Notes: generated by a model not told the origin, from the sequence alone. A stretch of DNA of 53,929 nt, filler included, from Jimgerdemannia flammicorona (GCA_003990765.1; 3 parts of 3 records of this genome joined end to end with filler, not necessarily neighbours in it); one strand, 5' to 3'. Shown: positions 377-51,859, numbered from the whole stretch's first letter. Numbers and translations are program-made.

Positions 377-2308
377 ATGTCTGCTACTCACCAAACCTCA
401 AGATCAAGGAATCACCAAGGCACCTCAGTCGAAGAAAGGATGTTCTAAGACATCAGAAGAGCTATGAGGACCCACTCAAGAAGGACTTCTAGTATCAACT
501 TGGGTACTGGTGACCCTTATTACTATATCCTCTACTATCATAAAATGGAAACCAGGATCACCATTGCTACTGAATACCTCCAAATGTGGCAGAAATATGA
601 AATAGGAAACCTTCTCTGCCAAGAGTTCCCACAGGCCAGTACTCAAGAGCTACAAGATGCCACTTCCATAGATATACATGAAATAAGGACAGCTAAGAAG
701 ATCCATCAGATCTTCAGATATGTACCATGGTTGATCCCCAACTTGGAGTATGTTAGAGTCTCAGATTTCAGAGACCTATCATCCTGTCATATCAATGCAC
801 TAGAAGCCAGAGTGGCTACAAAAGCCCAGTCCACTATCACTCTCAATAGTGATGAAGTAGAAAACTTCTAGTACCCCATCCTTCAGGACAATCCAGACCA
901 ATTCCTGCAAGGATTGATCTCAGTATTCCAAGGCCCAAGCATCCAGGTTAGACCTTCCCAAGACCCCACATTTATTCTCTATTTTGTAAAAGAGAACCTC
1001 ACAGACTGGAGAGCTCCAGATCTCCTTGTTTCTGATTTCCCCACTACTGAACATAATGATGTCATCAGTAATAACATCATCCCATGTGACATATGTAAGA
1101 TATACAATAAAGTATACAAAGTATGCTCCTTTTTCTGCTACCTTACTGGTCACAAGGTTTGGTAGGCAACCTTCCAAGTCCCCTTTCCCCTATTATTATC
1201 CCCTCTACCTTGGGTTGGTTTGCTGTACCTACATGGGCATGGTGGGAGAAGGGCAATAGTGATGAGTTGCCCTTTTATTGGTATTAGATCGGTGTCTTCT
1301 CCACTTTTTCGCAGTTTCTGGTATCTTTAGCTGTATCTGGAGTGCATCCATTTTGGTGTGGCACCTTCTTCCTTTTGCCATCACCAATAAGGTGCTGTCT
1401 CGGTGTATCTTAGGCTACGTAGGGAGTCAGCCGACCTTGGGCATCAAGTGCTCAGTATAGGTTATCTGCAGGTCCTTGGTGCCTATGGTGGGGCCCTCTG
1501 GCTTTGGTAAGCTTCCCGGCAAGCACGGTTCTAGTATAGATGACTGTTTTTCAGGTAATGTCAGGATGGGAGGGGAGATGGCCATCACAGATAGGAGAAA
1601 GAGTGATTACAGTGAACCAGTAGGGTGCCAGGCTGGGGGTGGTCATCGGGGCTGAGGCAGACAATATTTTGGTAAGGCCTTTCAATTGGCTGGTGGGGGG
1701 TAGGGTGGTGCAGGGGCCGGCATCCTGGCTGTACCCAACTGGAACTGGGAGCTGATGCAGTAATGCGATCAAGGCCTGCAGACTTAGGGAGTGGGGTCTT
1801 CCTTATTTGGCAGACCTGACTGGAACCAGGAGCTAACACACCAATGTGATCAAGGCCCATAGGCTCAGGGAGTAGGAGTGGGGTCTCTTTAGGCCCTAGC
1901 CCATATATAAGTCCTTTGAGGAAGGTGCTGCATATAAGTCCTTTACTCACCTGCTTTGAATCTACTTTGCTCTCTGTTGGTTGGTTGGGGGGTTTTTTTC
2001 TTTATCTTAGGCTTTCTTTTGGAGTTTGGGGGGCTATTCTTTATTCAGTCCTAGTGCTGCTAGATCTGATGCATAGGTGTGCTCTCATGTGTAAACAATG
2101 ATCCAGCCCTGGTGAGCAGACAAGTCTAGTCTATGTTGTAGGGGTCGATATAGCCAGTATTTGACAGACATAGCTAGAGCAATGGGACTGCTGGACAATT
2201 TAATAGCCTAGGTTAATAGGGGGATATTGTTCAGTGAATGGTGGGGGAGGGTTTTGGCCTATATAGTCTAGGTTCCCTTCCAATAAAAATCTGTGGGACT
2301 ATGAGTCC

Positions 2309-2339
<31 letters not shown>

Positions 2340-2460
2340 TGAAGCATGTGAAGTATGTGAAATACATGACCTACATGACGAATTCACAGACCTCATCTCC
2401 TTTGAAGACATTCTGATCTCTGATGATGAAGCCTCCATAGTCTTGAACATTCTGCTCTAA
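377..2460 (+). pseudogene. LTR-encoded accessory ORF (family A, copy 1), interrupted by the 1122-2339 insertion
   Basis: ATG at 377, downstream of TATAAAA at 290. The 464-871 fragment (KYEIGNLL...AKKIHQIF...VRVSDFRDLS) is homologous to 48763-49553 and 50943-51785; ends ...VLNILL* at 2460. Confidence 0.7.
1122..2339 (+). mobile_element. ~1.2 kb poly(A)-tailed non-autonomous retroposon (SINE-like), copy 1
   Basis: Absent from the other family A LTRs. Ends AATAAA...GGACTATGAGTCC-ATT-(A)n. Homologous at both ends to 27478-28640. Flanks TAAAGTATACAAAG / TGAAGCATGTGAAG differ only by transitions (possible decayed TSD). Confidence 0.75.
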
Positions 2461-2940
2461 GTCTCTTGATTATACTGAATAATGCCAGCACTGGCATTCT
2501 AATGTAACACTGAATAATACCAGCACTGGTATTCTGATATAATACTGAATTATACCAGCATCCTGAATCTGTACAACCATCAGTACTGACCCTGGAACTT
2601 AGTAGTTTTTCCTGTCCTGATATTTTATTTTAGTTATTGGAATTTATATTTAGCTTTATATCTTAGCAATCATTGAATTATATTTTGTATAAATACCCCT
2701 CTTATTTTCTCTGAAATAAAGTCAGTTCTGGTTCACATACATACACTTTCTTGCAAGCAATCTAAGAGATAACAAGACAGTTTAAAGATAAGAAGTTTGA
2801 GGACTATAAGACCTTGGAAAGGCACTCTAATAAGAACTTGCTTATAACAAACTTGTAGTTAGTCTAAGAGATATACCTTGAAGAAAATCTGATGTATTTG
2901 AAGGACTCAATGCCTACTACATGACAATGTATATAATATA

Positions 2941-3142
2941 GTCTTCTCAGTGCAATATACATAATCTCTTATAAGCAATCTAAGAGATAACAAGACAGTT
3001 AAAGATAAGAAGTTTGAGGACTATAAGACCTTGGGAAGGCACTCCAATAAGAACTTGCTTATAAAAAACTTAAGTTAGTCTAAGAGATATACCTTGAAGA
3101 GAATCTGGCATATTTGAAGGACTCAGCAACCACTATATGATA
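2941..3142 (+). repeat. Second copy of the LTR 3' terminal ~200 bp
   Basis: AAGCAATCTAAGAGATAACAAGACAG...GAAGGACTCA repeats ~2755-2926; closely resembles 49850-50053. Confidence 0.85.
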
Positions 3143-4189
3143 CCAAATACAAGAAGAAATAAGTAATAAAATCAGTACATAAAATTAATTATCTAAGAGA
3201 AATAAATATATATAATAAAGTAAAAAGAACAATATAGTGACCAGGAATAGAGAAAGATATCAGACAATTTGTCAAGACCTGTGACAAATACCAGAAACAG
3301 AAATAAGACTAATGAAATCAGACTTCAGGATCAGTACATATATAGATCCAGTACTCTTTACCTATATAGTAATAGATATAATTAACTCTCTACTCTTAAC
3401 TTTGACTGGTAACTGATATATCATTATTATATAGATCTTTTTACAAAATTAATAAAAGCAGGACTCCTCAAGGGGGCCAATGTATAGTTAATTATCAATT
3501 TTTTCTACAAAGAAATCATCTGCTAATTCAAGACCTCAATATAAGTATCTATGGATAAAGAAACAGAATTTATAAACCAGTTCTTTGAGGTTCTCTATAA
3601 GAAGTATAAGATCTAGCACATTCAGACTATAGCCTATCACCTTTAGAGAAATGGATAAGTAGAAAAAATAAACAAGACTCTCAAGAATATCATCACTAAG
3701 ATCTGTAATAACTATGGAAACTGAGACCACTATCTGCTAATAGTATTATCTGTTCTTCAGAATATTTAATCATAAAGTACTTATTTTATCTCTTGAGAAA
3801 TGCTGTTCAGAGAAGAAATTCTCAAGAAATCCTATCATCTAATAGAATTGCTATATGAAAACATATAGATACTAAGATATGAAGACTATATCAAATTAGA
3901 AAGAAAATTAAGGATTATATAACTAATATATAGGCTTTATAATAGAATAATATAGAAAATTTTCACAAGTCTTTAGAGATTATCAAGATAGGAGATAAAG
4001 TTCTAATATATCAGAATATATTAGAAGTCTCATAGTTATAAAAACTAAAGCCTAAGTAAAAAGAACCTTACCTTATATAAGATATAAAAGAGACTACCTT
4101 TTGGCTGTAAAAACTATCAAACATAATCATCTCTACTACTATTTACTGAAACTGGCTTAAGAAATATTATAATCAACTAATAAAGTAAT

Positions 4190-4630
4190 ACTGCTGTCCT
4201 CAAGATTACTAGTGCTATATAATAAGCTATAGAAAGATAGTAGTATTCTATCAAGTTACTGACTATGAAAGAATCCTTTAATAGTATTTAGAGTATAGTA
4301 TAGATATACTATCACAAATCTTATATTTGGAACTAATCAAAACTAGACTGAGTTTCAGAAATACTTCAAGTTAGAATAGCTACTAAATTTGAAACCAGAA
4401 ATAGAAAAAGAAGATTAGATCAGAGAATATCAGTTCTTCTATACTCAGATCACTATTACTAAGAGAGTATATAAGTTATTTAAAGAGGATGAACCAGCTC
4501 TAGTCTATTTCTGAGAGATAGCTCTAAGAGACTTTGGATATACATATCAAGAGATAATAGTATTGGAAGAATATAATAATATAAATCACATAGTATAAGG
4601 AGATTCAACTGATCAAGACTTAGAAGTTTA
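4190..4630 (+). pseudogene. Decayed ORF3 of gypsy family C
   Basis: Translates AVLKITSA...EFQKYFKLE.LLN...YTQITITKRVYKLFKEDEPAL...RDF, matching 11148-11522. Boundaries approximate. Confidence 0.75.
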
Positions 4631-4749: not shown

Positions 4750-7171
4750 AAACTTTAATAACTGTTAAAGATTTGGCAGATATTGAAATCCTTGCAATCA
4801 TCAAAATCTTAGTAGATATCAAAAGATTCAATACTTATAAAAAGTGACTCATAGGAAAGAAGCATGCTTTTACTGTAAAAAGAAAGGACATATATTTCAT
4901 AAATGCTCTAATAAGAAGATCAATATAAACAAAGAACTATTCTCCTTATATACCATTACTATAATAGGAGATAATCCCAAAGAAATCTCTAAAAAAATCA
5001 AGATCAAGAGATTTTATATTATTACAAAGATCTCAGACAAAGTATATAAATCTAATATAGACTATAATATCTACTCTAGTATAGAAGTAACTATCAATCT
5101 AAATAAGTAAGTAATTATTAGCATAGATATTAGAATGGAAGTTTCTAAAGATACCTATATTTGTCTTGTAGAAAGAAGTAGTCTGATCAATAAAGAGAGA
5201 CTCTATGTAACTGGAGGAGTTGTAGACTAAGAATTCAAAGATAAGATCAAAGTTCTGCTATATAACACTAGACAGAAGACTGTCAAGATCATATGTAGAA
5301 AATGAATTGCTCAAGCTATCATTGAGATAATATATAATAATCTTGAAGTTAAAAAAACAAATAAACTATCACCTTCTAATAGAGGATAAAAAGCCTTCAA
5401 ATTAACAGAAAAATACTCTAATAAGACTAAAGAGAAGATTAAGATATAGAAGATTGTCTGTATTAAAGAACCTCAAGACCAAGACCAGAAATAGTATCAA
5501 TATATTACTGATAGATATGTTCCTACAAGATGATATACTTACAGAATTAAGATGTACTGTTTTGAACATATAGGAGAATATATTACATATATTCTCAAAT
5601 CCAAAAAGTATAAGTCAACTATTCTGGAATAATGAGATAAAGAAATCAAGAATATCAATAATGAAGATGGAGAAGTACTAGAATGAAAAGAAGAAACTAT
5701 TCTGGAAAAATCACTACCCAATAAAAAACCAATACAGAATATATCTGTCTCTAAGGAAAAATCAAAGGAAATCCTATTGAAGTTCTTATTGATAGTAGAG
5801 CAAGCAAATGCTATCTTAATCAAGAAATTACTAATAAATTTTATAAGGAAACATTACTATATTCAGAAATAAAACAATATAGAAACTCTTTAAGATATAT
5901 AAGAATATACTTTTATAACTTAGAAACTACACTATAAGATAAACCTTCTATATTGCACATCTTTTTGAATACAATCTCATCCTTAAAAAAATCCTGGCTC
6001 ACTCAGAAGAACCCCCATATTGATTAGTAAACTAATATAATCTCTCTAAGAGATATTAAGTTACAATCTGAGTATGTTAAAAAGAAATCAAAGCTCAGAT
6101 GTAATGTTATCTCTATTATTCAGATAAAGAAGCTAATTTAAAAACCAGACTAGTATATTTATATATATAGTTGAAAAGATCTCAAAAGAAGATAATAAAG
6201 AACCCTCTGAACTTCTAAAGAATAAAGATGATGAGAAAGATAATTTTCAAGAACTACTCAAGAAATATGAAGATGTTTTTCAAGAACTCCAAGAACTGCT
6301 ACCAGTCTAAGCAATAGATATAGTATCAAGACTATTTCTAGTTCAGACCCTCTCTATCATAGAATCTATTAAATAACCCAATCTAAGCTAAAGATCCTCA
6401 AAGAATAACTAGTAGAATTAACAAGCAAAGGTCTCATTCATTTATCAAAATCACTATATGGTATACTTATCCTCTTTATTTATAAGAAGAATAGAGTCTC
6501 TATATATGTATTGATTACTGAGCACTCAATAAGATTTCAATCAAGAACCAATATATACTCCTAAGAATTAATTAATTACTTAATCAAGTATATAAGGCTA
6601 AGATCTTCTCACTCATTAACCTCATATCTAAATATCATCAAATTTATATCAAAGAAAAAGTATTTTCAAGACAGTCTTTCAAACAAGATTTGGATACTAC
6701 AAATTCTATATAATACTATTTAATCTTACCAATATATCAGCAATCTTCTAAATATTGATAAATGATATTTTTTGAAAATATCTCAGAGTTTTCATTCTGG
6801 TCTACCTAGATGATATACTAATATATAGTATAAGTAGCATTATTTACTAATAATATTTATAAATAGTCTTCAACATACTTTATAAATACAAGCCCTTAGT
6901 AAAGAAAGAAATACTACTTCTTTAAGAAGAAAATTGAATATCTAAGATTTGTTATCTTAGAAAATAGTATTGTTATTAATCTCAAAAAACCCCAAGCAAT
7001 CTGGAATTGACCCATTCTGAAGACCCTCAAGTCTCTATAAGGATTCAATAGATATTATAGGAGATTTATTTAAGGATTCTCTGTAATTATCACCCTACTC
7101 ACAAGTTTTATCAAGAAAGGAGCTAATATTGAAAAAGAATAGACAGAAGTATATACTACAGTCATAAATAC
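4750..7171 (+). mobile_element. Decayed Ty3/gypsy internal region (family D): gag CCHC, dUTPase, CPHG module, protease, RT
   Basis: CFYCKKKGHIFHKC (~4865), dUTPase-like region, PIEVLIDSRAS (~5773), RT CIDY*ALNK and VYLDDILIYS (~6800). Many stops and frameshifts. Confidence 0.85.
4990..5410 (+). pseudogene. Retrotransposon-encoded dUTPase (decayed)
   Basis: Motif order YNIYS, ERSSL, GGVVD*EFKDKIKVLLYN, IAQAI, RG*KAF matches trimeric dUTPase motifs 1-5. Confidence 0.75.
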
Positions 7172-7275: not shown

Positions 7276-8960
7276 TGTAAGCACACAACCTCCAAGCCAC
7301 TGAAATCACATATCACCCTCTGAACAAAGCCACTGAAATCACATGCGATCTCTAAACAAATCTGGAAATCACCTGCTTGATCACAAAGCTGAGTCAAACT
7401 GAAGTCACAGTGCACAAAGCTGAGTCAACACGAAGTCACGGAATACAAGATTCACACAAACAGAATCTTACCAATCAGGACTAAATGCATATATACCAAG
7501 TACCAAGATGTGTCAAACCAGAGAACCAAAACAAACAACAACCACAACTTCCAAATACACAAACATGACCACTGAGATCTACACCTATATCTGCGCTGAC
7601 ATTTGGAATGCTATTGTCAACCAAGCCACTCTCCCTCTACCCCTCATGAATATCTATAGCCTGGCACCCCTCTATTTCATGGAAGCCTAATGGAATGCCC
7701 TAAACATGCTCAACAAAGCCCACCAAATTGGACAAATCTCAAGCTACTACCAGATTGGCCACCTCCTAGAAGATATGGTCGAACACTACCATGATATAGA
7801 TATTACCCAGATGTCTCAATACCAGAAACTCATTGCCCACAAATACTGAGAACTCTTCTATGAGTATAGCACTGTTATTTCCCACTTCTAAGTTACTATA
7901 GCTGAAATGGTTGCTACCCTGTCCTATGGCCAAATCGATAATATGATATAAGAACTCAACCACAAGTACCTCAAGTATGTCAAAACCACAGACAGAATCT
8001 TCCCACACCCTAATGATCATATCCTGCAAATGCCCCAAGTCAAATATACTATGAAGGACATCTATGATATAATCTACTTCAACAAAGATGAAGCAGAAGA
8101 CAATGATCCCTCTGATGCTGACATGATCTCAAGTTAAGGATCTCTGCCAACTCTGATCACACCACCAACCTTACTGATAAACTTACAATAATTCATAACA
8201 GCATATGAGACTTATTGGGACAATGACCATTGGTATGAATACCAATCCGCATTCACCCCCGATTACTTCAACTATAATGAAGAAACTGAAGAACACAATC
8301 TGTATCTCCAGACAACTCTCAAGATTAAACCAATCACTCTACCACCTGAGTACAAGTGATATGAACCACAGCTACTAGCTTACTACAATCCCATGACTCA
8401 TAGTGCTGTAACCTACAGAAAGTATACAGACAGCAAATCTGATAAAAGTGAAGATGATGCACCTCTCCTCTGCCCACCAACACCTTATCTAGTATACAAG
8501 ACAGATAATGCTATTCTGTAGGATGGTAATGAAGTTTCAATGTATTATTACCTTAGCAAACAAGGAGAAGTAATCCATGAACTACTTTTCCTAGATGACT
8601 ACTTTATCAGAGATGATGTCATCGATAGTGATGTCATTGAAGACTACCCAGATAGTGTCTAAACCTATAAATAGCTTAGCAGTCATAGTATAGTTAGATT
8701 AGCCTTATATGATGTGACTGTAAACTGACTCAGCAGTCAGGTGATCTCTTGACATGTCAGATCACTCTTGTACTATGTGACTGCATTCTGACTCAGCAAG
8801 GCACTTAGTGCTACATCCATATCTAGTATAGTCTAGATAGCCCCTCACTAGTATAAATACCCCCTCCCCCAGACCTCAGAATCTCAGACTTGAACAGACT
8901 TGAAAGACTTGAACAACTCAAACACAACTTCTGAGCACTCCCCCATGATATCCCTTTACA
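7276..8960 (+). mobile_element. Long solo LTR (family B, ~1.69 kb)
   Basis: Starts TGTAAGCACACAACC, nearly identical to the LTR start of the gypsy element at 32186. TATAAATA at 8852; ends CCCTTTACA. Flanks TAAT/CAAC differ only by C/T transitions (possible decayed 4-bp TSD). 3' end less certain. Confidence 0.7.
7565..8662 (+). pseudogene. LTR-encoded accessory ORF (family B)
   Basis: MTTEIYTYICADIWNAI...APLYF...YYQIGHLL...QKLIAHKY*ELFYEY, then an acidic tail ending DDVIDSDVIEDYPDSV*. Internal stops and probable frameshift. TATA-like CATATATACC at ~7489. Confidence 0.65.
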
Positions 8961-10098
8961 CAACTACTTCTAGTATAGCAATATCATAAATAGTGAATAA
9001 ACCTATTTAATAACCTATAAACCACTCTTAAGTAAATCTGCTCCCCATTAGGTCCCACTCCTAACCCCATTACAAAATTTCCTAATTGGGTATTGTCTGC
9101 AGCAATATGCCAATTCAACTAAGCTGGTCTTAGTTTCTTGAACTTTCTGAAATATGGAAAATCCTAAATATCCAGAACTAGTCTGAAAAAGGACTTTGAT
9201 TGAGACATTAACCAAATCTTAAAATCAATAAGTATAGAGGATGTACTCTATATGAAATTGATCTTGACCATAAGAAAACAGTCTCCCAGAATATCCAGAA
9301 CTTCCAGAAAACCCTTCCAGAACTACATAATAGTTACTCTAAAAAACAACCCTCTTATAATAATTCTTTAGTATTCTTATTGATATTTAGTAATATAATA
9401 GTCAAATCTAAATACAGTGGTCAATTCTAATGGATTTTTTTATTTAGATAGTTCTTAGATATAGTAGTAATTTGATAATTTTAGTAAATTCCTTCTTGAG
9501 TAGAAGATAATTTCTATATAACATGATGATCTTCAAAAGTATACAATTTCTAATATAATGATCTTATTTCCAAAATTATGCAATTTCTGGTATAATGATC
9601 TTAGCATATAGTATATTTCAAAACTGAATCAATATTTTATTAAATTTTATATTTTAGTTATTTAAATACAAATTCTCTATAAATATATTTTATATTATAA
9701 TATATTATAGTTTTATATTAGAGATATTTAAAAATATTAAATTTATTATTTTTAAATTTTGATTTTATCTTTAAAAAATATTCTTTATTCAATAGACAGA
9801 CAATAAAATTGAGATATAAATTTAAAATATATTATAGTTATTCTTTTAATATTTCTCTATAATCTCATATAATTTATTTTTTAAAATCTTATTATTTTAT
9901 CTTTTAAAATAATAATAAAAAAACTCTTTTTAAATATATATATATTATATTATTAATATACTGAATTCAAACATTAAAGCAATGATATTTTGTCTAAGAA
10001 AGGCTATTTAAGTATACTTTCTATTTATAATAAATTATAATTTATTTATTAAATAGATTAGTTATAGTTTGAGATTATATAAATTATTATAATATTAA

Positions 10099-10574: not shown

Positions 10575-10637
10575 TTAAAAAGAGTTTAGATAAATAAATA
10601 AAATATTAAAAGAATAACTATAATATATTTTAAATAT

Positions 10638-11023
10638 TGTAACATAGCAGACGCTTACTCTTGAAAGTACATCAGATTTCTATATCTTGAAAACTTGACT
10701 GTTCTGACTCTTGCAGAGTCTCTTGAAGTTGCAGGGGAGGGTGGGTGAGTTCGAAGTGTATCTGCCCGCAGAATTACTAGTTCCTTTGCTATCTCTTTGC
10801 TTTGAACTATTTTGATCTGAGGTTTATTCACTCGAAGATACTGAGTTATTTATATAAGTTTGCTAGCTATGAGATGGTTACTGGGTTATGTGGCTAAGTT
10901 ATGAGTCATTTAACACTTTGCGAAATTTTTAGCAAGTTGCGAAATGCTATACTACTTTGGGACTGGGTGTGATCAAGTGTCTATTCCCTATTTCCTTCTT
11001 CCGAATCTAGCTATACCATCACA
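10638..11023 (-). repeat. 3' LTR of family C element
   Basis: Direct repeat of 14545-14930; differences are mostly transitions. Confidence 0.95.
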
Positions 11024-11147
11024 ACTTCCTTCTGAATAGATGATCTCGTCCCTAAAGCATCTATTCAAACTCCCAAGCTTCAATGGTCTGTATGGTCTTA
11101 TATTGTGCAATTTGTTATATCACTGTTTCCCAATGGTGTCGTCTAAC

Positions 11148-11522
11148 TCAGTCGAAGTCTGAGGGAGTCACTCCTCGCAGGTGGGCTAGTGCTGATTCAT
11201 CCTCTTGGAATAGCTTGTGGATTCTTTTGGCAATGGTGATCTGAGAATAGGAGAGCTGGCATTCTGTGATCCAATTTTCTTTGGTCATTTCTGGGTCTTG
11301 GTTGAGTACTTGGCCGAGTTTGAAGTACTCTTGGAATTCGTTTCGATGCTGATAGGCCTTGAAGTGTGAGATCCAAGAGAGATGAGTCTGCATGATGCTT
11401 TGGATACTGTCATAAGACTCCTCTATGGTTGGAGGCTCGGTGGTGTACCATTGTCTCTCGATAGCTCTTTGGGTAGCACTAGTGATCTTGAGTGCCATCG
11501 CGGTACTTTTGTTACTGGCCAT
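11148..11522 (-). CDS. ORF3 accessory protein downstream of integrase (unknown function)
   Basis: 124 aa ORF starting right after the integrase end. The TGA at 11148 may be a decayed CGA, since the frame continues VRRHHWETVI. Homologous to 4190-4630 and to the LTR-encoded ORFs. Confidence 0.7.
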   Translation of the reverse strand: MASNKSTAMALKITSATQRAIERQWYTTEPPTIEESYDSIQSIMQTHLSWISHFKAYQHRNEFQEYFKLGQVLNQDPEMTKENWITECQLSYSQITIAKRIHKLFQEDESALAHLRGVTPSDFD

Positions 11523-11539
11523 GATATTTCTTGAGTCGG

Positions 11540-12445: not shown

Positions 12446-12630
12446 CCTTCTTCCCTGATCTGTTTTTCGAGAGCTTTCTGCCTTCTTTTCTGGTGGATCT
12501 TCCTGATTCTAATGGTGCACTGGTAGCAATCATTGATATGCTCCATACAGTACATCCTGATCCCATGAGGACAGACTCCTTGTAGTGCATAGCCTTCTGC
12601 CATCTTCTTGCACCATTCTTCTTCACTCAT

Positions 12631-23100: not shown

Positions 23101-23159
23101 ACACCCCCTGCGACGGATGCCCCTTGCTGCGCCTTCCCTCCTCTCTCCCAACATACGCC

Positions 23160-39227: not shown

Positions 39228-39268
<41 letters not shown>

Positions 39269-42200
39269 GTCACTTGGACTTCTTTATTCAGACTATCTAA
39301 AACACTATTACAATGATATTAACCACAACTGCTACAGTAATATATCATATTTAGTTAGGTTTAGTCACCCAACTCCTTTCTTCCATCTGATCTCATGCTC
39401 CTCCAATACCAGGTGCCCTCAGCTTTGCTGAATAATATCATGTATCTTCTGTAAGGCCTCTGGCTAAAGCCATCTCCCTGATACTACCACCCTTATACCA
39501 TCTCTTGAAGAAGCCCCTTCCACTACTCTACCAGCTCACCAATCTCTAGCCATGGGTCTTACTCAAACACCCATCTCCAATATACTGCCATCAGGACTCA
39601 GACCCCCAGGACTTGACCTAGGCCCCCCCAAATATCTCCTATCTCCTCTACCAGTTAGTGCTTGACCACCAGGCTGATAGGATCTCCAGTCCTTCTGCTA
39701 GCAGAGTGCCAGTAATCTTCCAAGCATTACCAGAACCCTTCTACATCAGGGCAGGCTGCCAGAACATGCTCTGGTGACTGAACCACTCTGCCATCTATCT
39801 CACTGTACCACTCACAGTCCTGATAGCCATCTACCTCCATCCATCTTGTCCAATACCCCAGCATCACATTCCTCCTCAGGAAATGCCACTATACAACCCA
39901 GTACTTGGGAGGTACCACCTTGAGCAAGATATCTCCCCATCTCCATATTCAGCTCCACTCCCAGCCTTCACCCAATCCTGCCTTCTGCCAATCTGCTGGC
40001 CATCTCTCCAGAGGGCCAGCTCTGATCCACTCCATCACCTCAACCAATGAGTACTCCTTCAGACTATAACCACCAATATAAAGGTCCCCCAATTGCCACC
40101 ATCTCTGCTCAGGATCCTCACCATCCTCCATCTCTGGTCCTACCAACCTCATGGCCAGCTAGGCCTCCACTATATCCCACCAGAATCCCTTATACTGTAG
40201 TCAACTGACATTTCCAACCTGAAGCAAATCCTGTATATTCTTCCAAATCTCACTATGGAGGCAGAACTGAATCCCCCAATTGTTCATCGCCAGCCTGCCC
40301 CAACCCCCTTCTCCTATCTCCACCAATTAACACCCCCACCAACCTCTAAGGACCCTTAGCCATCACCTAAAGTCCACCAACCCCAGGCCACTATCAGTTG
40401 TTCACATTACCAGTGCATCCTACCCAATCTGCAGCTGTTTCCTATGCCATAACCAGCCTTCCACAATCTTCTTCAGCTGCTGCACTACTTATTCTGGGAA
40501 GTCCAAGTGATACCCTAGATACTACAATTTAGGCAGCCAATATATATTCAAGACCACAATCCTGCTCATCAAGGAGAAACTCCTCCTAGACCAACCAGTC
40601 AAAGTACCTTCCAACTTCTGAATTGTGCTACTCTATCACTCCTTCAGCAGGACTGTCCCATATACTGAGAACCAAATATCTAGATATTCACAGTACTCCC
40701 AGTTGCCACCAATTGTCCAAATTGTCTATGTTCCCCCAGACCGGTACCAAGTTCCATTGTCTCACACTTACCCCAATTTAGTTTCACCCCTGCCAGTCTC
40801 TCATACTATTCAACCCCTTCCTGCAAGAGGTCCACATCCTCCATGCTACCCAACCCAACCACCATATCATCTGCAAATGCTCCCAGTTTCCATACTATAC
40901 CACTTATTCACAGTCTTGAAAGCTGCCCCTTCAGCCATACCAGCAATGGCTCCAGAGAGAGTATATAAAGGAGAGGGGAGAGAGAATTTCCTTATGGCAC
41001 ACTATGCCCCAAAGCAAACTCTGGGCCACTCCATCCATTCATCATAACTGCTGCTCTGCATCCTTATACCAAGCCCATTAATCTCCCTGTTTCTGCTGCT
41101 CTAAATCCAACCTTTCTCAGAACAGTCTCCAAGTAGATCTACCACACTCTATCATAGGCCTTCTCTTGGTCCAGAAAAACCATCCTACCATCTACCTGCT
41201 GGCTCCTATAGCTCTCTAAGACATTCTGCACCCAAGCTGTACTATCTCTGATCTGCTTTCCTTTGACAAAGCCTCACTACTCTTCACCAACCAGCATGCC
41301 AATATACTACTGCATCCTTTCTGCTAGAATCTTCGAGACCAGCTTTCTATCCACATTCAGCAGCATAATAGGTTGCCAATTCTACCATACCCACCAATCA
41401 CTCTTTTCCTTATATAGGAGGGAAACTAATCCCAAGGAATCATTGCTGATCCAGCTGCCCTCCTTCAGAACAAAGTTGGCCATCTCTACCAACCAGCTGC
41501 CAAACTCTGCCTTGAACTCCTTTCAGAATTCCCAGGGCAATCCATCCTTCCCAGGAGATGAATCAGCCTGTATCTTCTGCAATACCTCCAAAACTTCATC
41601 CAGAGATACTTCACCCATCACTGCCCCCCCTATCTCAGATACCGCTACTACTGGCCAAATGTCTACCATGTTGCCACCATCCTCCTCAGACATCACATTC
41701 TCTTCATGCTCCCCTCTATCCTGCCAGAGAGCCTGCCATTGGCCTGAGACCTCTCCCAATATATCGGCAATCCCTGTGACCTCCATTCTATCTTTGCACA
41801 GTATGGAGGCCCAACTGTATCATACCCTTCTGGCCTTCAAGATTCCAGACAGATATTTAGTTGGTCTCTTACCCTCCTCCAACCACCTCGCCTATAGTCT
41901 GGCAAGTAGACCATCTACTGCCCTATCCTTGGCAGCCCTCAATTCAGTCTGAAGCTCCACCACCTCTACTGCCAGCTAGTGGCACTTCTCCAAACAGGTT
42001 CCCCTCTTTCATTAGCTTCAATTGCCACCTCAGCCCCTTTTTGACCCTCCTTGCCTTATCCTTCTACTCCTTCCCAGCTACTTCACCAATATTCCTCCAA
42101 TAAGTACTAGTCAAATGTTTGAATTTATCCCACCATTCTGCTATTAACTGTCCATCATTCTACCACTATGTTACGTCCTATTGCACAATATCTACGAACT

Positions 42201-45200
42201 GATCTCTTTCCTTCTTCATCCTGAGTAAAGCCACATTAAGATGCCAGTGCCCACTACTACTATTTGCTACTTAAAATCTGCCACATACCTCCACTCCCCA
42301 ATAATCTGACCAAGGGCACCAATGTACTTCAGCAACATCCAGTATATTACTCCAACACTCAGCTACCAGCACCCAATCAATTCATGTCCTAACCAATTTG
42401 TCTCCTACTAGGTGCTACTGGGTGAATAGTCCTGACTCATCTCCCTGATACTGATAGATACCATCCACCAGTCCTATATCACACTCTACCTAAAGCCACT
42501 GAGACAGCCCAGAGGAAACCACTACTCCTGTCCCTCCATCTGACCTGTCCAGTATCTGATTATGCACTATATTGAAATCCCCCCCAGAATGTTCAGCACT
42601 ACCACCTTCCGACCTTCCTAAGCCCACTAGTCCTCAACCCATTGCTTTTACTCTCTGCTAACTACAGGGAGATAAACCAATCCTACTGCTAGACCATCAC
42701 CTACCCCTTCTTTTAGTCTTTCCTACAACAATCTATCACCATAAACCTCAACCTCTACCAGCTCACCTTTACCAATACCAACCAGGATGCCCACCTGCTT
42801 GTTCCAATCCATACCACCATACCATTCTTTACTCTACATCTCAAAGTCCCACTCTCTATATATCCAAACATCCTGAAGGAACACAATATCATATCTTCTG
42901 ACTTTAAGCCATCAAAACAGTCTCTGCCTCTTAATATCATCCTACAACCTATTGACATTGATTGATAATATGTGTAAACTGTTCATCATTATCAAAGAAA
43001 TGTTTAAAGCTCAGCTGGGATCACCACTACTTTCTCAGCCCTTCCTCTAATGATCTCTTGCTGGTCCTTACAAATCACCCTCTAGATTCAATTACCATTT
43101 GTGCTGCTGCAGAAAAGGTCCACTCTTTCTGCTGCTACCTTTCTTATATCTGCCATCCTGCTCTCATCAACATCATATCCTTCATCATCTAGAAGAGCTG
43201 CAACCATTGCTGTCACCAGCTTAGGCCTCTATATTGCAATATTGAGAAATCCCTCCCATGTCTCCTGAGATCCATGAAATATGTCCACTTCCTTGATGTC
43301 TTCCTCAGTAAGTTCCTCAAGTACCACCTGATACCAGCTCTCTGCCATCATCACCAGGGGCCCAGGAGTCAATGGCCTGGGGGTTCTGCTCAGCTCCTAC
43401 AGTTGCTCTCTATCTGTCAACACATCTGAAGCCATATCCACTAGCTCATCCTCCTCTAAAACCTTCTCCAAATGAACCACCTCACCAGCCTCAGGGCACT
43501 CTCAATGAACATTCACTGCCCCAGCCATATGGGTGTCGTCAACCTATATCTCTGGCACTACTTTGATATCTGTCTCAAAGCTTCCTTCTCTCACCTCCTC
43601 CTTATCTGCCCATTTTCCTCTCATTAGTGCATGTGCTGAGCTCTCCACACCACCCAGCTGGGAGAAAGACACCTCTACCACTTCCACACCCTCCATCTGA
43701 TTCTTAGCCTCCTCTACTCTTACCTCCTCTTCCACTGTCACCCCCTGAAGGGCCATCTGCAGACACTCCCAATTTTCTTTCCTCCATCTCTTCTGCTTGC
43801 CATCTGTCTGAATCCAGACCCAATCCTTGGCAAACTCCTCTCACTTCCTCTTTCACAACTCCTTGGTAGCCTCTCTCTCTTCCAGAGCAATTACCAACTC
43901 TTCCTCCTCTTGTTCTGTCCTCTTCCTCCTCTACACCTTGCACTCCTGTCCTCCAACTCAAATCTCCTCAGGCCAATCTTGTCCCAGACCAGTCACCTCT
44001 ACCACTATCTCCTTGGTCTCCTGTCTGCCCAATGTCAGCAAACCCTCTACCACCAGTTGAACAGCTTGTGGGTCCCACCTCAAATACCTCACTATCTCAA
44101 TCCTGACACCCTTGACCACTATCCCTTTTTCCAGTGCCTTCACCATTGCATCCTCCTCCACAAATCCAATCTCCACTACCTCCGCTGAAGAGATGAACTT
44201 CAAGGATTCTGCCCCTGCCACTTCCTCCCCCACCAGTCTCAGAACCTCTCTAGCTAATATCACCAATCCTAAGAAATTTGCCAAAACTGTCCATATCGAT
44301 ACTGATTTATAAAAGAAAGGCCTCACTATCAACTTGTCTGTCCCAGCCACTAGGGTCACCTTCCCCTTAATTTCAGAAATATCAGCAGTTGCCTCACCCA
44401 TCATAGCTATGCCACCAGCAGTCCTCTCCCCAGCCACCAGCCCAGCCACAGAAGAACCAGTCCCCAGCATCACACCACCAGACCCCTGTCCTCTTCCAGC
44501 CACCTGACCTATCACCTGACCCATCACCTGATCCCTTCCCCTGTCAACACTATACCCCCCCTGCCCCACCCTCAAGACCTGGCCACAGCCCTCCTACTTC
44601 TAACCACAGTACACCAAGCCTTGATTCCACCAGTCCTCCCCTGGCCACCAGCCCCTCCTGCAGCCATACCAGCCCCTGCAACTGCTGCAAAGCTCTTGGA
44701 AATACCCAGACCAGGCCTCCTTCTCTCCAGATGCTCAGAGCTAGAGGAACCTTGACTAGCCATGTTGCCAAAACTTGATGGTTTTCTCTGAAACTTATTG
44801 TGCCTTATAGATAGACTCCTGCTGCATGATGTACATCAGTTTGTTTGAAATAAAAACTTGAAAATATGTTGTCTTTTGCTGAAAGGTGCTTGTGTGGCTT
44901 AGCTCACTCTGTGTAGTTTGAGCAAAAGAAGTCCTCTACCATCACCAGAGCACTTAGCCTTTCCACTTCCTCTCATGCCACTAGCCCTCCACTCCTACTC
45001 TCAGCTCTCTATCCTCCATCAGTTCTATCCATCAGTACATCTCAGACCATATTGAAGTCTCTACCAAGCACATCTACCCCAGCCTCTGCAAGGACCCCAC
45101 TCTCCTGGAGACCCTTCACCCAATCCACATGCTCACTCTATACAGCAGGGCAGTAACAGGAGTCTACTGTGACCAGCTCTCAATCTGTACATATTCACTC

Positions 45201-47500
45201 TCTTCAGACCAATCTATCTCTCCAGCTTCTCATATCCCATACCTCTCCTCTGCCTTTCCAGACCAGAATTCCAATCTTGCCCTTTCAAACTACCTCACCT
45301 CCCCATTCCTTTGTCCATTTCAGCCTATCCAAATCATTCTCACACCCAACATCCTACAAGAGGAAGAGATCAGCCTCCAATCCCATTAGCCAAGTAAAAA
45401 TCTTCCTATATCTAGAAGTACTCTATAACCTATTCACATTCAGAGAGAAAATGTTAGTTATACTATTCATAATGAAATATAGTGTGTTATCCAGTCCATC
45501 TCTACTGCTCTATGTTCATCTCTTCCTGTGCTATATCCAGATTATGTTTTGCAGTCACTGCCTCCTCTTCAGCCCTCTGAGTCTCCAATCCAGTCAATAG
45601 CTCATTCATCTCTCCATCTGCCTTCTCCTCAAACTCCTCCTGGTACTCCAGACAGGCCTCCTGCTAGAGTTGTAATCTATGATGCTTGGTCCAGCAGTAT
45701 TTAGCCCTCTCACTAGCATCACTTATTAGCTCTGCCTCCCACTTCTTATCCACCTCATACCCTTCCTCCTCCAGATATACTATAAGGATTTCTGCCTTTA
45801 ATGCCAACACTACTCTATCTCCCTGCAGGATCTGTACCCAATGCTCATCACTCATTACTCTCAAGTCCACCTCCCTTAACTCTTCAGCCACCAGATTATT
45901 CATCATCCTACACATCCAAAGTAGGTTCCTCACCTCCTTCTCTCCAGGAGTCACTGGTCTCCCTCTATCCAGCATTGTGGTATGCTCTAGTACTCACAGA
46001 CTCATCTCACACCTCTGGGATATCTACTAGTTCCTCCTCTCCAACCACCACCACATATCCCCTGTTCACTACCTCAGAAACTCCAAATTGCACTTACTGG
46101 GCCCCCCACATTGGCACATCCTCTACCACCTTGCTTTGGGAAGTCAGACCTCACCTGATAAGAGGAGTAGGAGTAGACAAGTCCTCCCAGTCCTCCTCCC
46201 AGACCTCAAATATACCATCAGCATATAGGTCATTGCCAGTTATCTTCCTGTCCTCTCCTGTCCCCTTCTCTGCACTCCCACAGTCCAGACACTTGCTTTG
46301 GCACCCCCCACCTCTACCATTCTACCCACATCCTTCTGTGGTCTACCTTCTAGCTTAGCTAGCAGCTCCTTCTGTCTCTTATGTTCCTGAGCTCTTTCCC
46401 ACTATCTCTTGTCTACTCAAATCTACTTCTCATCTACTACCTTCAAGTATATCAACTCTACAAATGTCTTTCAAGCCTTTGTCCACTACCACTCAACTCT
46501 TTCAGCACTTCCAACAAGTTCTCTTCCTCCTCCTCACTCCCCTTCACCCTTATCACCTTGTACAAGATTGCCCTCCAGACCATCACCAAAGGTCAGTCCC
46601 TTGTCTTCCTGATAGCTTCCTTTTCTGACAGCCAAATCTATACATCAATATCCCCAGTCCTGAGCAAGATCCCTTTCCAGATCCTGAAACTGATATCCAC
46701 CACCTTGCTATACTCCACCATAACCTCCTCAACTCTCCTTCTCATCTCCACTACCATTATCATGGGTACTCCTTTTACCAGCAGTTATACCACCCTGGGA
46801 TCTTATCTCAGGCAATATATCATAGGGACACATACCTCCCCAACAGTCAATCCAATCTTCAGCACCTCCTCTAAAGGCCTAGCCTCCTCAAAGCCCACCT
46901 CCACTCTCTCTAATCCCTTCAGGAACTTTACTGACACTGCCCCAGCCACCTGCTTAGTGATAAGCCTCAGTACTATTTTCACTATTACTGCTAGGCCCTA
47001 GAAGCACAATGTAACCACAAATGCTAAGATTAATTTTTTGAGTAACAGGGCCACCACTAGGTCTATTACACTATCTGCCAAATCTCCCTGCCCTCCAAGC
47101 CCCAGTCACCCAGCTATACCATTAGCAGTTATATATGGATTTTTTCCAGATTAGCAGTCTCATTACTATCAGCTATTATGCCACTACACCCCCAGCTCTA
47201 CTGCCCCTACTGCCAAGGGCTACTCTCCTATGTACTGTCACCTTCTTCATCTCCTTGCCTTTTCTCAGCCATCTCTCTAGCCCAGACACCTGCTGTCTCT
47301 CCTTTACTATCTTTACAAAGCTCATCCTCTCTGACCTCTGTCCTCTACTACTATCTCCTCTCCTTCCATATCTTCCTGCCAGCAGCCCCCTCATACCCCC
47401 CCCCCAGGCCAGGACCTCTCCCCACATACTGCCAGTTGAATGTGCTTAGGCCACCCTGCCCAGTACACATCTCAGATTACCTATCAGTCAACATATTATT
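36024..47500 (-). mobile_element. L1/Tx1-like LINE, copy 1, split by nested LINE
   Basis: Poly(T) at 36024. Minus-strand RT motifs GDPLSP (~37740) and GAFADN (~37630); endonuclease PWSDH (~39065), resuming after 44960 with DFNMV and FSLNVN; ORF1 with a Cys knuckle KCLDCG (~46285). 5' end approximate. Confidence 0.8.
39231..44943 (-). mobile_element. Full-length decayed L1/Tx1-like LINE, copy 2
   Basis: 36-nt poly(T) at 39231-39266; 16-bp TSD AYCAGAGCACTTAGCC (39215-39230, 44944-44959); ORF1 from 44763; ORF2 motifs LSINVN, GDFN, SPGKDGLPWEF, LDQEKAYDRV, GAFADD. Confidence 0.9.
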
Positions 47501-48505
47501 TGTCTCTTTTCTCCAAAAATAATATTATAAGTACTTTCCAAAGGTTGTATAACCTGAATGGTACTGGAGAAAGATATGAACATTATCTACATCTATATCT
47601 AAGTTATATACTTTTGTGCTAATAAAAAGCAATAATATAAATAAAGTATATATTAATATAGCCAATAATAATAATATATATCTAATAGATTTAGATATTA
47701 TATAATATATAACAGTCTACTGAGAATAATTCTCTATATATAAGTTCTTTGAGTATCTAGTACCAATCAAATTAGGTAATAACAATATTATATATGGTCA
47801 AGAAAGTAGAAATATCAGTATATATCTCTATAAAAATATCACAAAGTCTACTGGTACTTTTCAGGATATACTATATACTTTAAAAATAGAAAAAAATCTC
47901 TTTTCAATTTACAAAACGATGGCCTACAGTGATAAAAGGATACATATATACCTAATAGAAGCAATAGTATATGGTTTAAAGAATGATAAGGAGATTATAA
48001 TAGTATCAAAATGAGATAATCTTTATATGATCAATGGTATGTCAAGTAGTATAAAAACCTCTGTGTATATGTCAACTATATCTGATATATTCAATATATA
48101 GCATCAATATTTAGGATATATATATAGACAAATTAAGTCTAAAAAAAATAATAAGAAATAGTTTAGTGAGAGGATTACTGACAATATATATCCTAATAAC
48201 AACTTTTGCAAAAATTATATAACAAATAAAGCATTCTGATATCTATTTAAAAAATGAATGAAATATGTATCTAGTATACTTAATTTAATCTATACAGATA
48301 TATATAGTCTGATATATACTACTTCTTATAGAGAGAAGAGATATTTCATCATATTTATTAATAATTATATATATGAAGCATATATATATTTCTTATTAAT
48401 AAAGAATGAAGTCTTGGAAAAATTCAAAAAGTTTAAAGTAATTATAGAGAATGAAATAGAATGTAGAATATATACTATATACTCAGATAATAGACATAAA
48501 TATAT

Positions 48506-50053
48506 TATAATGGTGACCTCAGAATGATGACATAAGCACAAGAGATAGCAATTTCTTATAAGCTACCAGATCAGAGCACAAGAAGATTATACAGCATAAC
48601 TCACCCAGACTATAAGATGAGCTATAATGACTAACTATGAGTCATTGTGACTACAGCATAGGTATTTTGAGGAATATAAAAAAAGGATCAAGGAACTACA
48701 GTAGCAGCAACTCAATAAGACCTACCAATTTCAAAATAGCTCAAAAACTTACTATAAACAAAATGCCTGCTGCTTGCCAAACCTCAAGGTCAAGAAATCA
48801 CCAAGACATCTCAGTTGAAGAAAGAATATTCCAAGATATCTGGAGAGCCATGAGGACCTATACAAGAAGGACTCCTAGCCTTAATCTGGGTACCAGGGAT
48901 CCTTATTACTTTATTCTCTACTATTGTAAAATGGAAACAAGGATCACTATTGCTACCAAATACCTCCAAATATAGCAGGAGTACAAAATAGGAAATATTC
49001 TCTACTGGGAGTTCCTACAGGCCAGCCCTCAAGAGTTACAAGATACTACTCCCATGGATATATGTAAAATAAGGACAGCTAAGAAGATTCATCAGATCTT
49101 CAGACATACACCATGGTTGATCCCTAACTTAGAGTATGTTAGAGTCTCAGACTTCAGAGATCTGTCAGCCTGCCATATCAATATACTAGAAGCCAGAGTG
49201 GCTACAGAAGCCCAGTCCACTATCACCCTCAATGGTGATGAAGTAGAAGACTTCTGACATCCTATTTTTCAGGACAACCCAGATCAATTCCTACAAAGAT
49301 TGATCTCAGTATTCCAAGACCCAAAAATCCAGGTTAGACCTCTCCAAGACTCCATATTTGTTCCTTATTTTGTAGAAAAGAACCTCATAAATTGAAGAGC
49401 TTCTGATTTCCCTACTGCTAAATATGATGACATTATCAGTAATGATGTCATCCCACATAACATATGTAAAATATATGATAAAATATTTGCAGAACTCATC
49501 TCCTTCAGCAATGACAAAGATGAAGCCCCATAGTCCTGAACATTCTGCTCTAAGTCTCTTGATTATACTGAATTATACCAGCACTCTTTTTTTATATAAC
49601 AGCTATTTCTCTACTGGTACATATTCTGATCTTGTGTGATTTAAAATTATTTCAGTACTCTTTTCCTATATTACTAAAATTATACCAGTATTCTAAACCT
49701 GTGTGACCATCTGTACTGACACTGGAACTTGGCAGTTTTCTGTATTTTATTTGGTTATTGGAATTTATATTTAGCCTTATATCTTAGCAATCATTGAATT
49801 ATATTTTGTATAAATATCCCTCTTACATATTTCCTTTGAAATAAAGTCAGTCTACTCAGTACAATACATATAATTCCTTGCAAGCAATCTAAAGAGATAA
49901 TAAGATAGTTTAAAGATAAGAAGTTTGAGGACTATAAGACCTTGAGAAGACACTCTAATAAGAACTTGCTTATAACAAACTTGAGTTAGTCTAAGAGATA
50001 TACCTTGAAGAGAATCTGATATATTTGAAATACTCAGCAACCACTATGTAATA
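48506..50053 (+). mobile_element. Solo LTR (family A, 1548 bp, uninterrupted)
   Basis: TSD ATAT at 48502-48505 and 50054-50057; colinear with 135-3142; removal restores the copia reading frame. Confidence 0.88.
48763..49553 (+). pseudogene. LTR-encoded accessory ORF (family A, copy 2; ancestral ~260 aa)
   Basis: MPAACQTSR...IFQDIWRAM...DPYYF...YKIGNIL...AKKIHQIF...VSDFRDLS...; essentially one frame with isolated transition-type stops. Confidence 0.75.
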
Positions 50054-50683
50054 ATATCAATAGTATATCCAAGCAGTACTTGAGAAAACAAAGTATACAC
50101 TATCAGATAATAGTGCTATATATACTATAGCAGAATAGTATAACTAAGTGATTTAACCATACAACTATAGAAATAGTATATATAATAATTAATACAGCTA
50201 GATTATCATATTCTTATTAGATCAAAGTCATTAATATAGTAGTATATATATATAACTGACATGTATCTCAAACATTGAGCAAGAAAGCTGATAATAATAA
50301 TAAGTAATTTAGAAATAATTATAATCTTACTTCTGAGTAGAACAAAGCCAGATATATTATATCTATATATATTTAGATATAATATATATATTCTTAATAA
50401 GAGCAATGATAATCAGTATAAGTTTAAGCTAAAAGTCAATAAGTATATATTTCTTCAGTATTTCAGTAAGATATATTGAGTTTGGAATCTATACAAATAT
50501 TATATAGTAATCTCATATAATATATAGTTTAATAAAAAATAAAAATCAGAAATCTCATATAGATATATTTATTAGAACCTCTACTTCAACCTCTACTTCA
50601 ACATCTATATCTCAACAAGTATAATATCTAATATCAATCTCTCTAATACATAAAGCAAAATTATTTTCAATTGTTATATATAC

Positions 50684-51859
50684 TGTAATAGTAATCTCAA
50701 AATAGTAACATTATCACAGAAGATAGCCTTTTCTTACAAGCTACCAGATTGAAGTATAAAAAGATTATATAGTATGACTCATCCAAGCTACAAGATGAGT
50801 AATGATGACTAACCATGAGTCATTATAACTATAAGATAGATATCTTAAGGAATATAAAAGAAAGACTAAGGAACCACAGTAGTAGTAACTCAAACAAGAC
50901 TTACAAAATCCTGAAATAGTTCAAAGACTCACTATAAACAAAATGCTTATTATCTACCAAACCTCAAGGTTTAGAAACTACCAAAAATTCTCAGTCTAAG
51001 AAAGGATGTTCCAAGACATTAGGAGAGCTATGAGGACCTATACTAGAAGGACTCCTAGTCTTAACCTGGGTACTGGTGACTCTTATTACTTTATCCTCTA
51101 CTATTATGAAATGGAAATAAAGATCACTATTACTACTGAATACCTCTGGATTTGACAGGTATACAAAATAAGAAACCTCCTCTATCAGGAATTCTATTAG
51201 GCCAGTTCCCAAGAGATATAAGATACTACTTCTATGGATATATGCGAATTGAGAGTAGTCAAAAAGATCTATCAGATCTTTAGGTATATACTTTGGTCAA
51301 TCCCCAACTTGGAGTATATCAGAGTCTCTGATTTCAAGGAATTGTCAGCCTGCCATACAGATGTACTAGAGGCCATGGTGACCACAGAAGTCCAATCCAC
51401 TATTATTCTCAAAAGTAATGAAGTAGAAGAGTTCTGGAATCCCATTCTCTAGGACAATCCTGATTAATTTCTGCAAGAATTAATCTCAGTATTCCAAGGC
51501 CCCAGTATCTAGATTAGATCCTCTCAAGATCCCACCTTTGTCTCCTACTTTGTAGAAGATAATCTCATAGATTGGAGAACCTCTGATCTCCTTACTCTCC
51601 TCTCTGCTACTACTAAATGTGATGTCATCTCACTAATTGAAATGTACAACATATACAAAACATATAAAATATGGAAAATAGATAAAATATTTGCTGACCT
51701 CATTTTCTTCAAGGACATTCTGACCTCTAGCCTTAATGATAGTAATGAAGATGAAGCCTCTAGAATTCTGAACATTCTGCTCTGAGTTCTTTATATAATT
51801 ATTAGAAATTATTCCAATATTCTGATCTTGTATAACCAATTATACAGACACTCAAATTT
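50684..51859 (+). mobile_element. Family A LTR, copy 3, with decayed accessory ORF (50943-~51785); cut by Ngaro/DIRS-like element
   Basis: Starts TGTAATAGT; colinear with 48506-~49730; fragment MDICELRVVKKIYQIFRY...VSDFKELS. Confidence 0.82.

Follow-up and report, generated by a model that had tools for sequence, protein, structure and literature searches.

An accessory protein family very likely shared by three LTR-retrotransposon families in a genomic window of Jimgerdemannia flammicorona, as a separate 3′ gene or apparently within the LTR

Accessory genes are what distinguishes 'complex' from simple retroviruses. The sag gene of mouse mammary tumour virus (MMTV), which codes for a membrane-anchored superantigen, and the lentiviral nef gene, which codes for a myristoylated adaptor, are located in or overlap the U3 region of the long terminal repeat (LTR), and the LTRs of foamy viruses are long since accessory genes extend into their U3. 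The foamy-virus protein Tas combines a DNA-binding part with an acidic activation part. Among LTR retrotransposons, accessory genes are to our knowledge rare, scattered and almost never understood; one of them, brtn of Botrytis, is reportedly antisense. The present study deals with an accessory protein family encoded by three families of LTR elements, here termed A, B and C, in a stretch of 53,929 nucleotides (nt), filler included, from Jimgerdemannia flammicorona (GCA_003990765.1; three parts of three records joined end to end). This whole stretch is referred to as the window, and all coordinates are counted from its first letter. It represents a nest of retrotransposons surrounding one short genic island.

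According to the accessible text of the respective papers, foamy-virus Tas acts on the LTR as well as on an internal promoter (PMC8670036, PMC4929722, PMC13220597), fungal gypsy elements contain an 'add. ORF' of unknown function (PMC2864245), bdelloid rotifer elements share extra open reading frames (ORFs) (PMC5408684) and the Botrytis element BcGypsy1 carries brtn (PMC8365987). Within the accessible parts of the last three papers, neither an LTR-internal ORF nor a conserved upstream TATA nor the sequence family treated here is described, and a literature search that covered few subscription journals yielded no paper on an ORF inside a retrotransposon LTR.

One conserved accessory family of LTR retrotransposons is very likely encoded by all three kinds of element; its members comprise 150-365 amino acids, share a helical N-terminal domain of ~130-150 amino acids that is predicted with confidence, vary in their mostly acidic tails and possess their own start codon. 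Six copies of such an ORF had been proposed in an earlier note on this DNA, and all of them were found in the expected places by translation and by tblastn with intact relatives:

377-1102 and 2350-2457, plus strand: accessory ORF of unit A1, split by a nested insertion, with two in-frame stops in the first piece
48763-49530, plus strand: accessory ORF of unit A2, one frame with three in-frame stops
50943-51773, plus strand: accessory ORF of unit A3, the most decayed A copy
7565-8662, plus strand: accessory ORF of unit B1, a single frame of ~365 codons interrupted by several stops
11064-11522, minus strand: ORF3 of element C1, open from 11522 to 11148 and then interrupted by two stops
4142-4535, plus strand: ORF3 of element C2, frameshifted and decayed, located by tblastn

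For the B copy the place was correct but the extent was not, as the ORF of ~365 codons is longer than had been described. At the DNA level, blastn (word size 11, E 1e-5) aligned none of the three unit types with another, as the earlier note had also claimed, and direct comparisons of the encoded proteins gave graded results. Within the window, tblastn yielded E-values of 0.02 for A-C and 0.29 for C-B; blastp yielded 7e-6 for C-A, 1e-3 for B-C and 0.08 for B-A. Such weak direct comparisons within the window (E 0.02-0.3) are what would be expected if the similarity had arisen by chance between decayed open frames that never coded for a real protein. The profile-profile comparison with hhalign, which used shallow C and A profiles, reached a probability of 51% (P 1.5e-4) and is suggestive, whereas an independent profile hidden Markov model (HMM) was decisive. 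Circularity was avoided by building this HMM from seven newly found members, none of them A, B or C, and the target set combined the 974 ORFs of the window that reach 30 amino acids with nine reference proteins. The E-values of all 13 A/B/C-type sequences fell between 2.2e-20 and 3.9e-7, compared with 1.1 for the top-ranking unrelated ORF of the window; two small fragments of the same copies reached 0.025 and 0.045. Individual values were 1.7e-18 for the C1 ORF3, 4.5e-14 for A1 (449-868), 1.2e-11 for A2 (48976-49254), 3e-8 for A3 (51222-51449), 3.9e-7 for P0017, the X read-through of 7535-8128 in B1, and 2.2e-12 for its intact relative P0018. As this model recognizes the A, B and C types alike, the single protein family of the earlier note is settled by the independent HMM test, and A, B and C are, as judged from their sequence profiles, homologous. 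A chance resemblance, which is refuted by the same test, by the existence of intact relatives for all three types and by the confident fold obtained from the joint alignment, is extremely improbable. All six copies in the window are dead, which counts against the expression of the gene proposed below.

Alignments with intact relatives define the extent of the decayed copies. P0004 aligns to 11522-11064 over all of its 153 residues with 83% identity, and eight of 12 C-type sequences share one start methionine, the remaining four starting at an internal methionine. The B1 ORF is covered by P0018 (7565-7948) and P0025 (7907-8659), and P0021 matches A1 at 440-1102 and 2350-2457, A2 at 48826-49530 and A3 at 51006-51773. 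A search with the joint profile among 1.84 billion representative proteins yielded 17 matches at E<=1e-3, of which 14 had been absent from the query profile; all 17 are open and comprise 49-342 amino acids. Every match with a recorded source comes from an environmental assembly. Close relatives, which are known from JGI and ENA records only, were found for C (n = 11, 65-83% identical), A (n = 2) and B (n = 1). The ten clusters that were looked up (P0024, P0025, P0026 and P0034 were left out) hold 19 members, exclusively from JGI/IMG, ENA or read-archive assemblies with contigs of at most 4848 nt, and the relatives found derive from soil-type assemblies. Among the annotated proteins of the searched collections the accessory gene is missing. 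Scanning metagenomes for A-like genes reduced 93 pattern matches to a single locus, L001 (1535 nt), which has diverged from the A copies too far for a dN/dS estimate and codes for a protein ~42% identical to P0021; an analogous scan of viral contigs gave no locus out of 49. A search of sequencing runs listed none of RNA type, and the three listed runs of DNA type contain only 7-11% of the sampled window words. The C element of the window is a G-to-A/C-to-T decayed form of the family present in soil-type samples (contigs from three runs).

The status of the protein as uncharacterized, likewise put forward in the earlier note, was upheld in that no Pfam match reached threshold and in that the profile and fold searches gave no significant match to any known domain. 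The protein atlas returned only unrelated or low-scoring clusters. Two candidate families were considered and rejected: Pfam HTH_Tnp_Mu_2 (PF09039) matched the C ORF3 with 13.1 bits (E 0.1), below its gathering threshold of 20.5 bits, and matched two of 19 members with a best E-value of 0.031, and Pfam DUF6546 (PF20183) was proposed by the atlas with a score of 0.87 and 114 shared features, under the trust levels of the atlas, and was found by hmmscan in none of 19 members at E<=1. A structure prediction for P0004 with AlphaFold had a predicted local distance difference test score (pLDDT) of 51.4 with 14 sequences; with 19 sequences it reached a pLDDT of 90.6 and a predicted template modelling score (pTM) of 0.81, and the model is all-helical. 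The conserved core motifs Y.IG..L and IAKRIH..F map to the modelled helices 40-75, 81-88 and 92-105. That the protein contains neither a signal peptide nor a transmembrane segment and is thus not an env product agrees with a maximal 19-residue Kyte-Doolittle hydropathy of <=1.08 in 16 of 16 members, none of which has a hydrophobic N-terminal core.

The position of the gene is most easily described for family C, as C1 possesses a pair of LTRs (10637-11024 and 14544-14931), which are ~386 nt long, 95% identical and have TG...CA ends. The domains were identified by a Pfam scan of the window that used stop-free ORFs of at least 55 amino acids, so that decayed domains may have escaped it:

10637-14931, minus strand: element C1 of Ty3/gypsy type, 4295 nt, recognized by its domains and LTR pair
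13588-13950, minus strand: gag zinc knuckle of C1
12634-13311, minus strand: protease of C1
12630-11584, minus strand: integrase pieces of C1
3147-4686, plus strand: second C-family element, which contains the C2 ORF3 and is the host of the A1 insertion

Reverse transcriptase (RT) and RNase H are absent from C1 by deletion, and the deletion joint at ~12448 is marked by loose ends of contigs from two sequencing runs. ORF3 of C1 begins 58 nt past the integrase stop in a different frame and, when read through its two stops, terminates 37 nt short of the 3′ LTR, with the purine tract AGAAGGAAG on its downstream side. The earlier description of the C gene as an ORF3 upstream of this tract was therefore accurate: it is a separate ORF between the integrase and the purine tract with the 3′ LTR.

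A different arrangement is found in family A, of which three units are present:

135-3142, plus strand: unit A1, a probable solo LTR with a nested insertion at ~1103-2349
48506-50053, plus strand: unit A2 of 1548 nt, probably a solo LTR, whose TGT...ACA ends have decayed to TAT...ATA
50684-51800, plus strand: unit A3, cut off on its 3′ side by a GC-rich element

According to blastn, these units are 75-80% identical: 135-1115 matches 48506-49486 as well as 50721-51593, and 2425-2909 matches 49519-50036. They start with T(G/A)TAAC/T and end with TG(T)(A/G)ATA, i.e., with a decayed TGT...ACA; A1 and A2 agree in this, and so does the start of A3. A1 is flanked by a CCAA target-site duplication (131-134 and 3143-3146) and is nested in a C-family pol gene, the Integrase_H2C2 zinc domain (E 4.9e-7) of which begins directly after it. 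A2 is flanked by ATAT (48502-48505 and 50054-50057), which is weak evidence alone in such AT-rich DNA. It lies between two weak Ty1/copia Pol matches in correct order (Pol_BBD, 47730-48011; SH3_retrovirus, 50279-50476). Together with sequence motifs, these two matches suggest that A2 may be placed in a Ty1/copia integrase; at E<=0.1, Pfam recognizes no domain in the decayed flanks of A2 or in the decayed stretch preceding B2. The A unit thus combines termini with a short inverted repeat, a 4-bp target-site duplication and, in its sequence pattern, a layout of a TATA box followed by a poly(A) signal. On the basis of the LTR termini and the 4-bp duplications A1 and A2 are probably solo LTRs.

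The two B units are less complete in this respect:

7276-9074, plus strand: unit B1, 1799 nt and LTR-like, with TGT...ACA ends, TATAAA at 8852-8857 and AATAAA near 8996
32186-32491, plus strand: B2, the first ~306-308 nt of a B unit including 16 ORF codons at 32443-32490

B1 has no target-site duplication, its flanks being TAAT and AAAT. Beyond 32491, B2 joins unrelated sequence leading into gag, dUTPase, protease and RT, and a sensitive blastn search revealed no further similarity to B1 past this point. B1 is located 3′ of an RT fragment (6319-6814) and B2 5′ of gag, dUTPase, protease and RT (33741-35903), so that each B unit flanks a gypsy body with a dUTPase on the side where it would be expected. 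Judged by its pattern, the B unit is LTR-like and unproven as an LTR. The proposal of the earlier note that the gene resides inside the LTR accordingly fits A, with its TGT...ACA ends, 4-bp duplications and TATA/AATAAA, and has to be restricted for B to an LTR-like unit without target-site duplication.

Several further observations concern the surroundings of the B units. In the gypsy-type element, the dUTPase domain (34053-34361; E 1.1e-15) is preceded by the gag zinc knuckle and followed by the protease, and this order recurs in more decayed form at ~4850-5593; as far as the accessible text goes, fungal gypsy elements with a dUTPase have been reported (PMC2864245). N runs of 44 bases, which are masked stretches, occur in two pairs flanked by identical sequence (repeat family D4), at 17914-18013 and 35924-36023; the second pair cuts the B2-associated element directly after its RT fragment. 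A copia-like stretch is present in two copies (47571-48492 and 31225-32174) with 71% identity, of which the first is interrupted by A2 and the second by B2. The two interruption points (48492-48506 and 32174-32186) are 2 nt apart in an ATATAT-like site, and this near-coincidence may reflect either targeted integration or a shared sequence preference.

The C LTR serves as a reference for the promoter layout of the three repeats. It has a single TATAAA, at position 171 of ~386, which is part of the motif GTATAAATAACC and is followed by GTGAATAAACC. The A, B and C repeats have in common a TATA box, GTATAAATA[AC]CC, and a subsequent AATAAA, both of which are located 3′ of the ORF in A and B. This second TATA is found at position 1304 of 1548 in A, with AATAAA ~30 nt later, and at position 1577 of 1799 in B:

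49809-49814, plus strand: second TATA box of A2 (GTATAAATA..CC type), the putative genomic-RNA promoter
~2688-2693, plus strand: second TATA box of A1, the counterpart of the A2 box

The R-U5 part measures ~215-245 nt in all three families, and U3 measures ~200 nt in C, ~1330 nt in A and ~1600 nt in B. As the segment after the second TATA is similar in A, B and C, the difference in length lies wholly in U3, and as the second TATA and AATAAA are downstream of the ORF, the accessory ORF of A and B appears to be part of U3.

Another TATA box precedes the accessory ORF itself:

290-295, plus strand: TATAAA upstream of the A1 ORF (-87)
48675-48680, plus strand: TATAAA upstream of the A2 ORF (-88)
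50853-50858, plus strand: TATAAA upstream of the A3 ORF (-90)
11603-11608, minus strand: TATAAA upstream of the C1 ORF3 (-86), within the last integrase codons

The undecayed relative L001 has TATAAA at -80, and B1 has TATATAC at -78. C1 holds only three TATAAA in 4295 nt, the other two being the boxes of its LTRs, and L001 holds in its entire length just the ORF-proximal one; 0.016-0.05 TATAAA are expected per 25-nt window. This pattern makes it fairly probable that the gene possesses its own TATA promoter 78-90 nt before the ATG, uses the poly(A) signal of the LTR and gives rise to a short subgenomic mRNA, by which the A and B LTRs would be self-contained genes. Two points diminish this probability: no canonical TATAAA precedes the B ORF, and AT-rich decayed DNA is enriched in TATA boxes, of which there are three per A and B unit.

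Other sequence motifs occur near these promoters. TGAGTCA, which we take to be an AP-1/Gcn4-type site, is found upstream of the ORF-proximal TATA in A1, A2 and A3 (about 250-262; 48635-48650). B1 contains it twice at 7390-7430 as CTGAGTCAA, and TGACTCA twice downstream of the ORF; these copies may be sites for host basic leucine zipper (bZIP) proteins. L001 contains a 33-nt motif at 170-202 and again at 1481-1513 (82% identical), i.e., 126 nt upstream of the ORF TATA and 218 nt past the putative LTR start, and this motif could be a cis-element of both promoters or a remnant of a partial LTR duplication.

Directly past the stop codon of the L001 ORF come a purine run and a TGTAA... start, and in this locus the gene may therefore be outside the LTR, as in C. 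Such a layout, resembling a purine tract and an LTR start after the ORF, would also fit with the idea that A and B each represent a small mobile unit complete in itself, or a fragment consisting of the ORF plus an LTR, in which case the gene would not be LTR-borne. The same idea could draw on the fact that the window shows no gag-pol body bordered on both sides by A or B units, on the missing target-site duplication of B1 and on the mere 306 nt shared by B2. It is nonetheless rather unlikely, as A1 and A2 are complete and collinear with TGT...ACA ends and 4-bp duplications, as both finish with TATA, AATAAA and a ~240-nt tail like the proven C LTR, and as the B units are on the correct sides of the dUTPase-bearing gypsy bodies. 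The location of the gene inside the LTR of A and B, to which we return, is weakened by the absence of any full-length A or B element from the window, the term LTR being derived from termini, target-site duplications and promoter layout.

With regard to function, it is possible, and can be put forward tentatively, that the protein regulates its own element in trans, from a promoter of its own and in the manner of foamy-virus Tas; this comparison concerns the mode of action, and no homology is claimed. The ORF-proximal TATA would drive a short mRNA ending at the poly(A) site of the LTR, the helical N-terminal domain of its product would bind nucleic acid at the LTR and internal promoters and would tether an acidic, hydrophobic activation-type tail to them, and the tethered tail would raise transcription of the element. 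Over the last 40 residues, the net charge of 13 of 19 members is at most -5, and bulky hydrophobic residues are found in between the acidic ones. The matches with DNA-binding proteins that span residues 60-153 are limited to SopB, VirB and a DUF3102 protein, with scores within the noise for helical models. A number of results lower the probability of such a regulator. Foldseek searches with the model gave best E-values of 0.81 in PDB and 0.56 in BFVD, a profile search against PDB gave a best E-value of 0.023, and the comparison of the family with phage P1 ParB by hhalign gave a probability of 0.4% (P 0.15). Pfam, NCBIfam and PHROG contain no consistent family match among the members, single scattered weak matches in PHROGs and NCBIfam aside. 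In addition, the tails of the C-type proteins are weakly acidic (-2, -3), and one member has a tail charge of +2. A farther-reaching version, according to which every long LTR, solo LTRs included, would be an autonomous gene for a DNA-binding transactivator of new fold and all of them together would form a trans-acting network, is doubtful.

The same tails can be read differently, since those of A type end in conserved hydrophobic motifs amid acidic residues. If the protein were a post-transcriptional factor like Rev or Rex, its basic N-terminus and helical domain would bind the RNA of the element and a leucine-rich C-terminal motif would mediate export or packaging. The position of the gene at the 3′ end matches that of retroviral regulatory genes, and the first 25 residues are rich in arginine and lysine, with a net charge of +3 to +5, in six of 19 members. 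Among all 19 members, however, this charge ranges from -6 to +5 and is thus not conserved, and the conserved part is a folded domain of ~130 amino acids instead of a short arginine-rich motif, by which a Rev-like function becomes improbable.

A role in counter-defence or targeting would mean that the protein blocks host silencing or tethers the integration complex to chromatin. The old repeats of the window are AT-rich and have a CpG observed/expected ratio of 0.03-0.08, whereas the genic part reaches 1.0 and a probably young, GC-rich element near the right edge 1.27; it follows that the host attacks the elements. For targeting, one may point to the two gene-bearing units that were inserted 2 nt apart in diverged copies of one element, although these near-coincident sites in an ATATAT stretch may reflect a simple sequence preference. 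As, furthermore, none of the known silencing suppressors, chromodomains or integrase-binding domains turned up as similar in the Pfam and fold searches, this role appears not very likely. The Tas-like regulator, tentative as it is, is kept as the working proposal for the comparison below.

The decay of the repeats has some features of its own. Transitions make up the bulk of the differences between repeat copies. The decay is centred on CpG, unlike that caused by classical repeat-induced point mutation (RIP), which is centred on CpA, and TpA observed/expected stays at ~1.0-1.1; between the A copies, C-to-T changes occur equally before A, T and C. A stretch of 11 kb (36100-47500) has a GC skew of -0.42 to -0.49, a CpG observed/expected ratio of 0.03 and an AT skew near zero, and this near-zero AT skew is unlike the expectation from simple G-to-A hypermutation. 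The stretch contains many plus-strand ORFs without a Pfam match, its sole domain being an RVT_1 fragment on the minus strand (37447-37683). The GC-rich, undecayed sequence at the right end (51973-53929; CpG observed/expected 1.27), which begins near 51900 and truncates unit A3, contains an ORF of 533 amino acids with a Cys/His-rich C-terminal motif and a further open frame that runs past the window edge. Neither open frame matches Pfam, and the sequence probably represents a mobile element that is young and belongs to a different class. An inverted repeat of 337 nt (15828-16164 and 16318-16654; 93% identical) adjoins a very GC-rich, proline-rich open frame (16524-17861) without a Pfam match. 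In the genic island, the Pfam scan identified two features:

23076-24467: ORF of the D123 family
25406-26053: methyltransferase

Extra ORFs in LTR retrotransposons are already known, and what is new here is an undescribed protein family, a regular gene layout and a probable LTR-borne form of the gene. The rotifer extra ORFs belong to other protein families, and from the 'add. ORF' of fungal gypsy elements the present family is set apart by description only, as given in the accessible text (PMC2864245). A gene has here been kept across element families whose DNA has diverged past alignment, and it codes for a well-predicted domain without a solved relative. The accessory family is a specific, clonable candidate with which to study how retrotransposons respond to methylation and mutation by the host, and routine repeat masking may conceal such genes. 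As in MMTV sag and lentiviral nef, the coding sequence would be contained in U3 and hence in both LTRs; unlike these two proteins, the accessory family has no hydrophobic segment and is predicted to adopt a different, all-helical fold. Tas resembles it as a regulatory gene at the 3′ end, downstream of pol and with its own internal promoter, which is here predicted from sequence. Unlike Tas, it occurs in a non-animal host and in elements of Ty3/gypsy type without env, and unlike the situation in foamy viruses, the whole gene together with its promoter would be inside the LTR in A and B. If the protein does regulate transcription, solo LTRs would be genes and no longer inert scars, and a network of them would keep the family, and perhaps relatives sharing its promoter motif, transcriptionally awake, as a non-animal counterpart of the regulation known from complex retroviruses.

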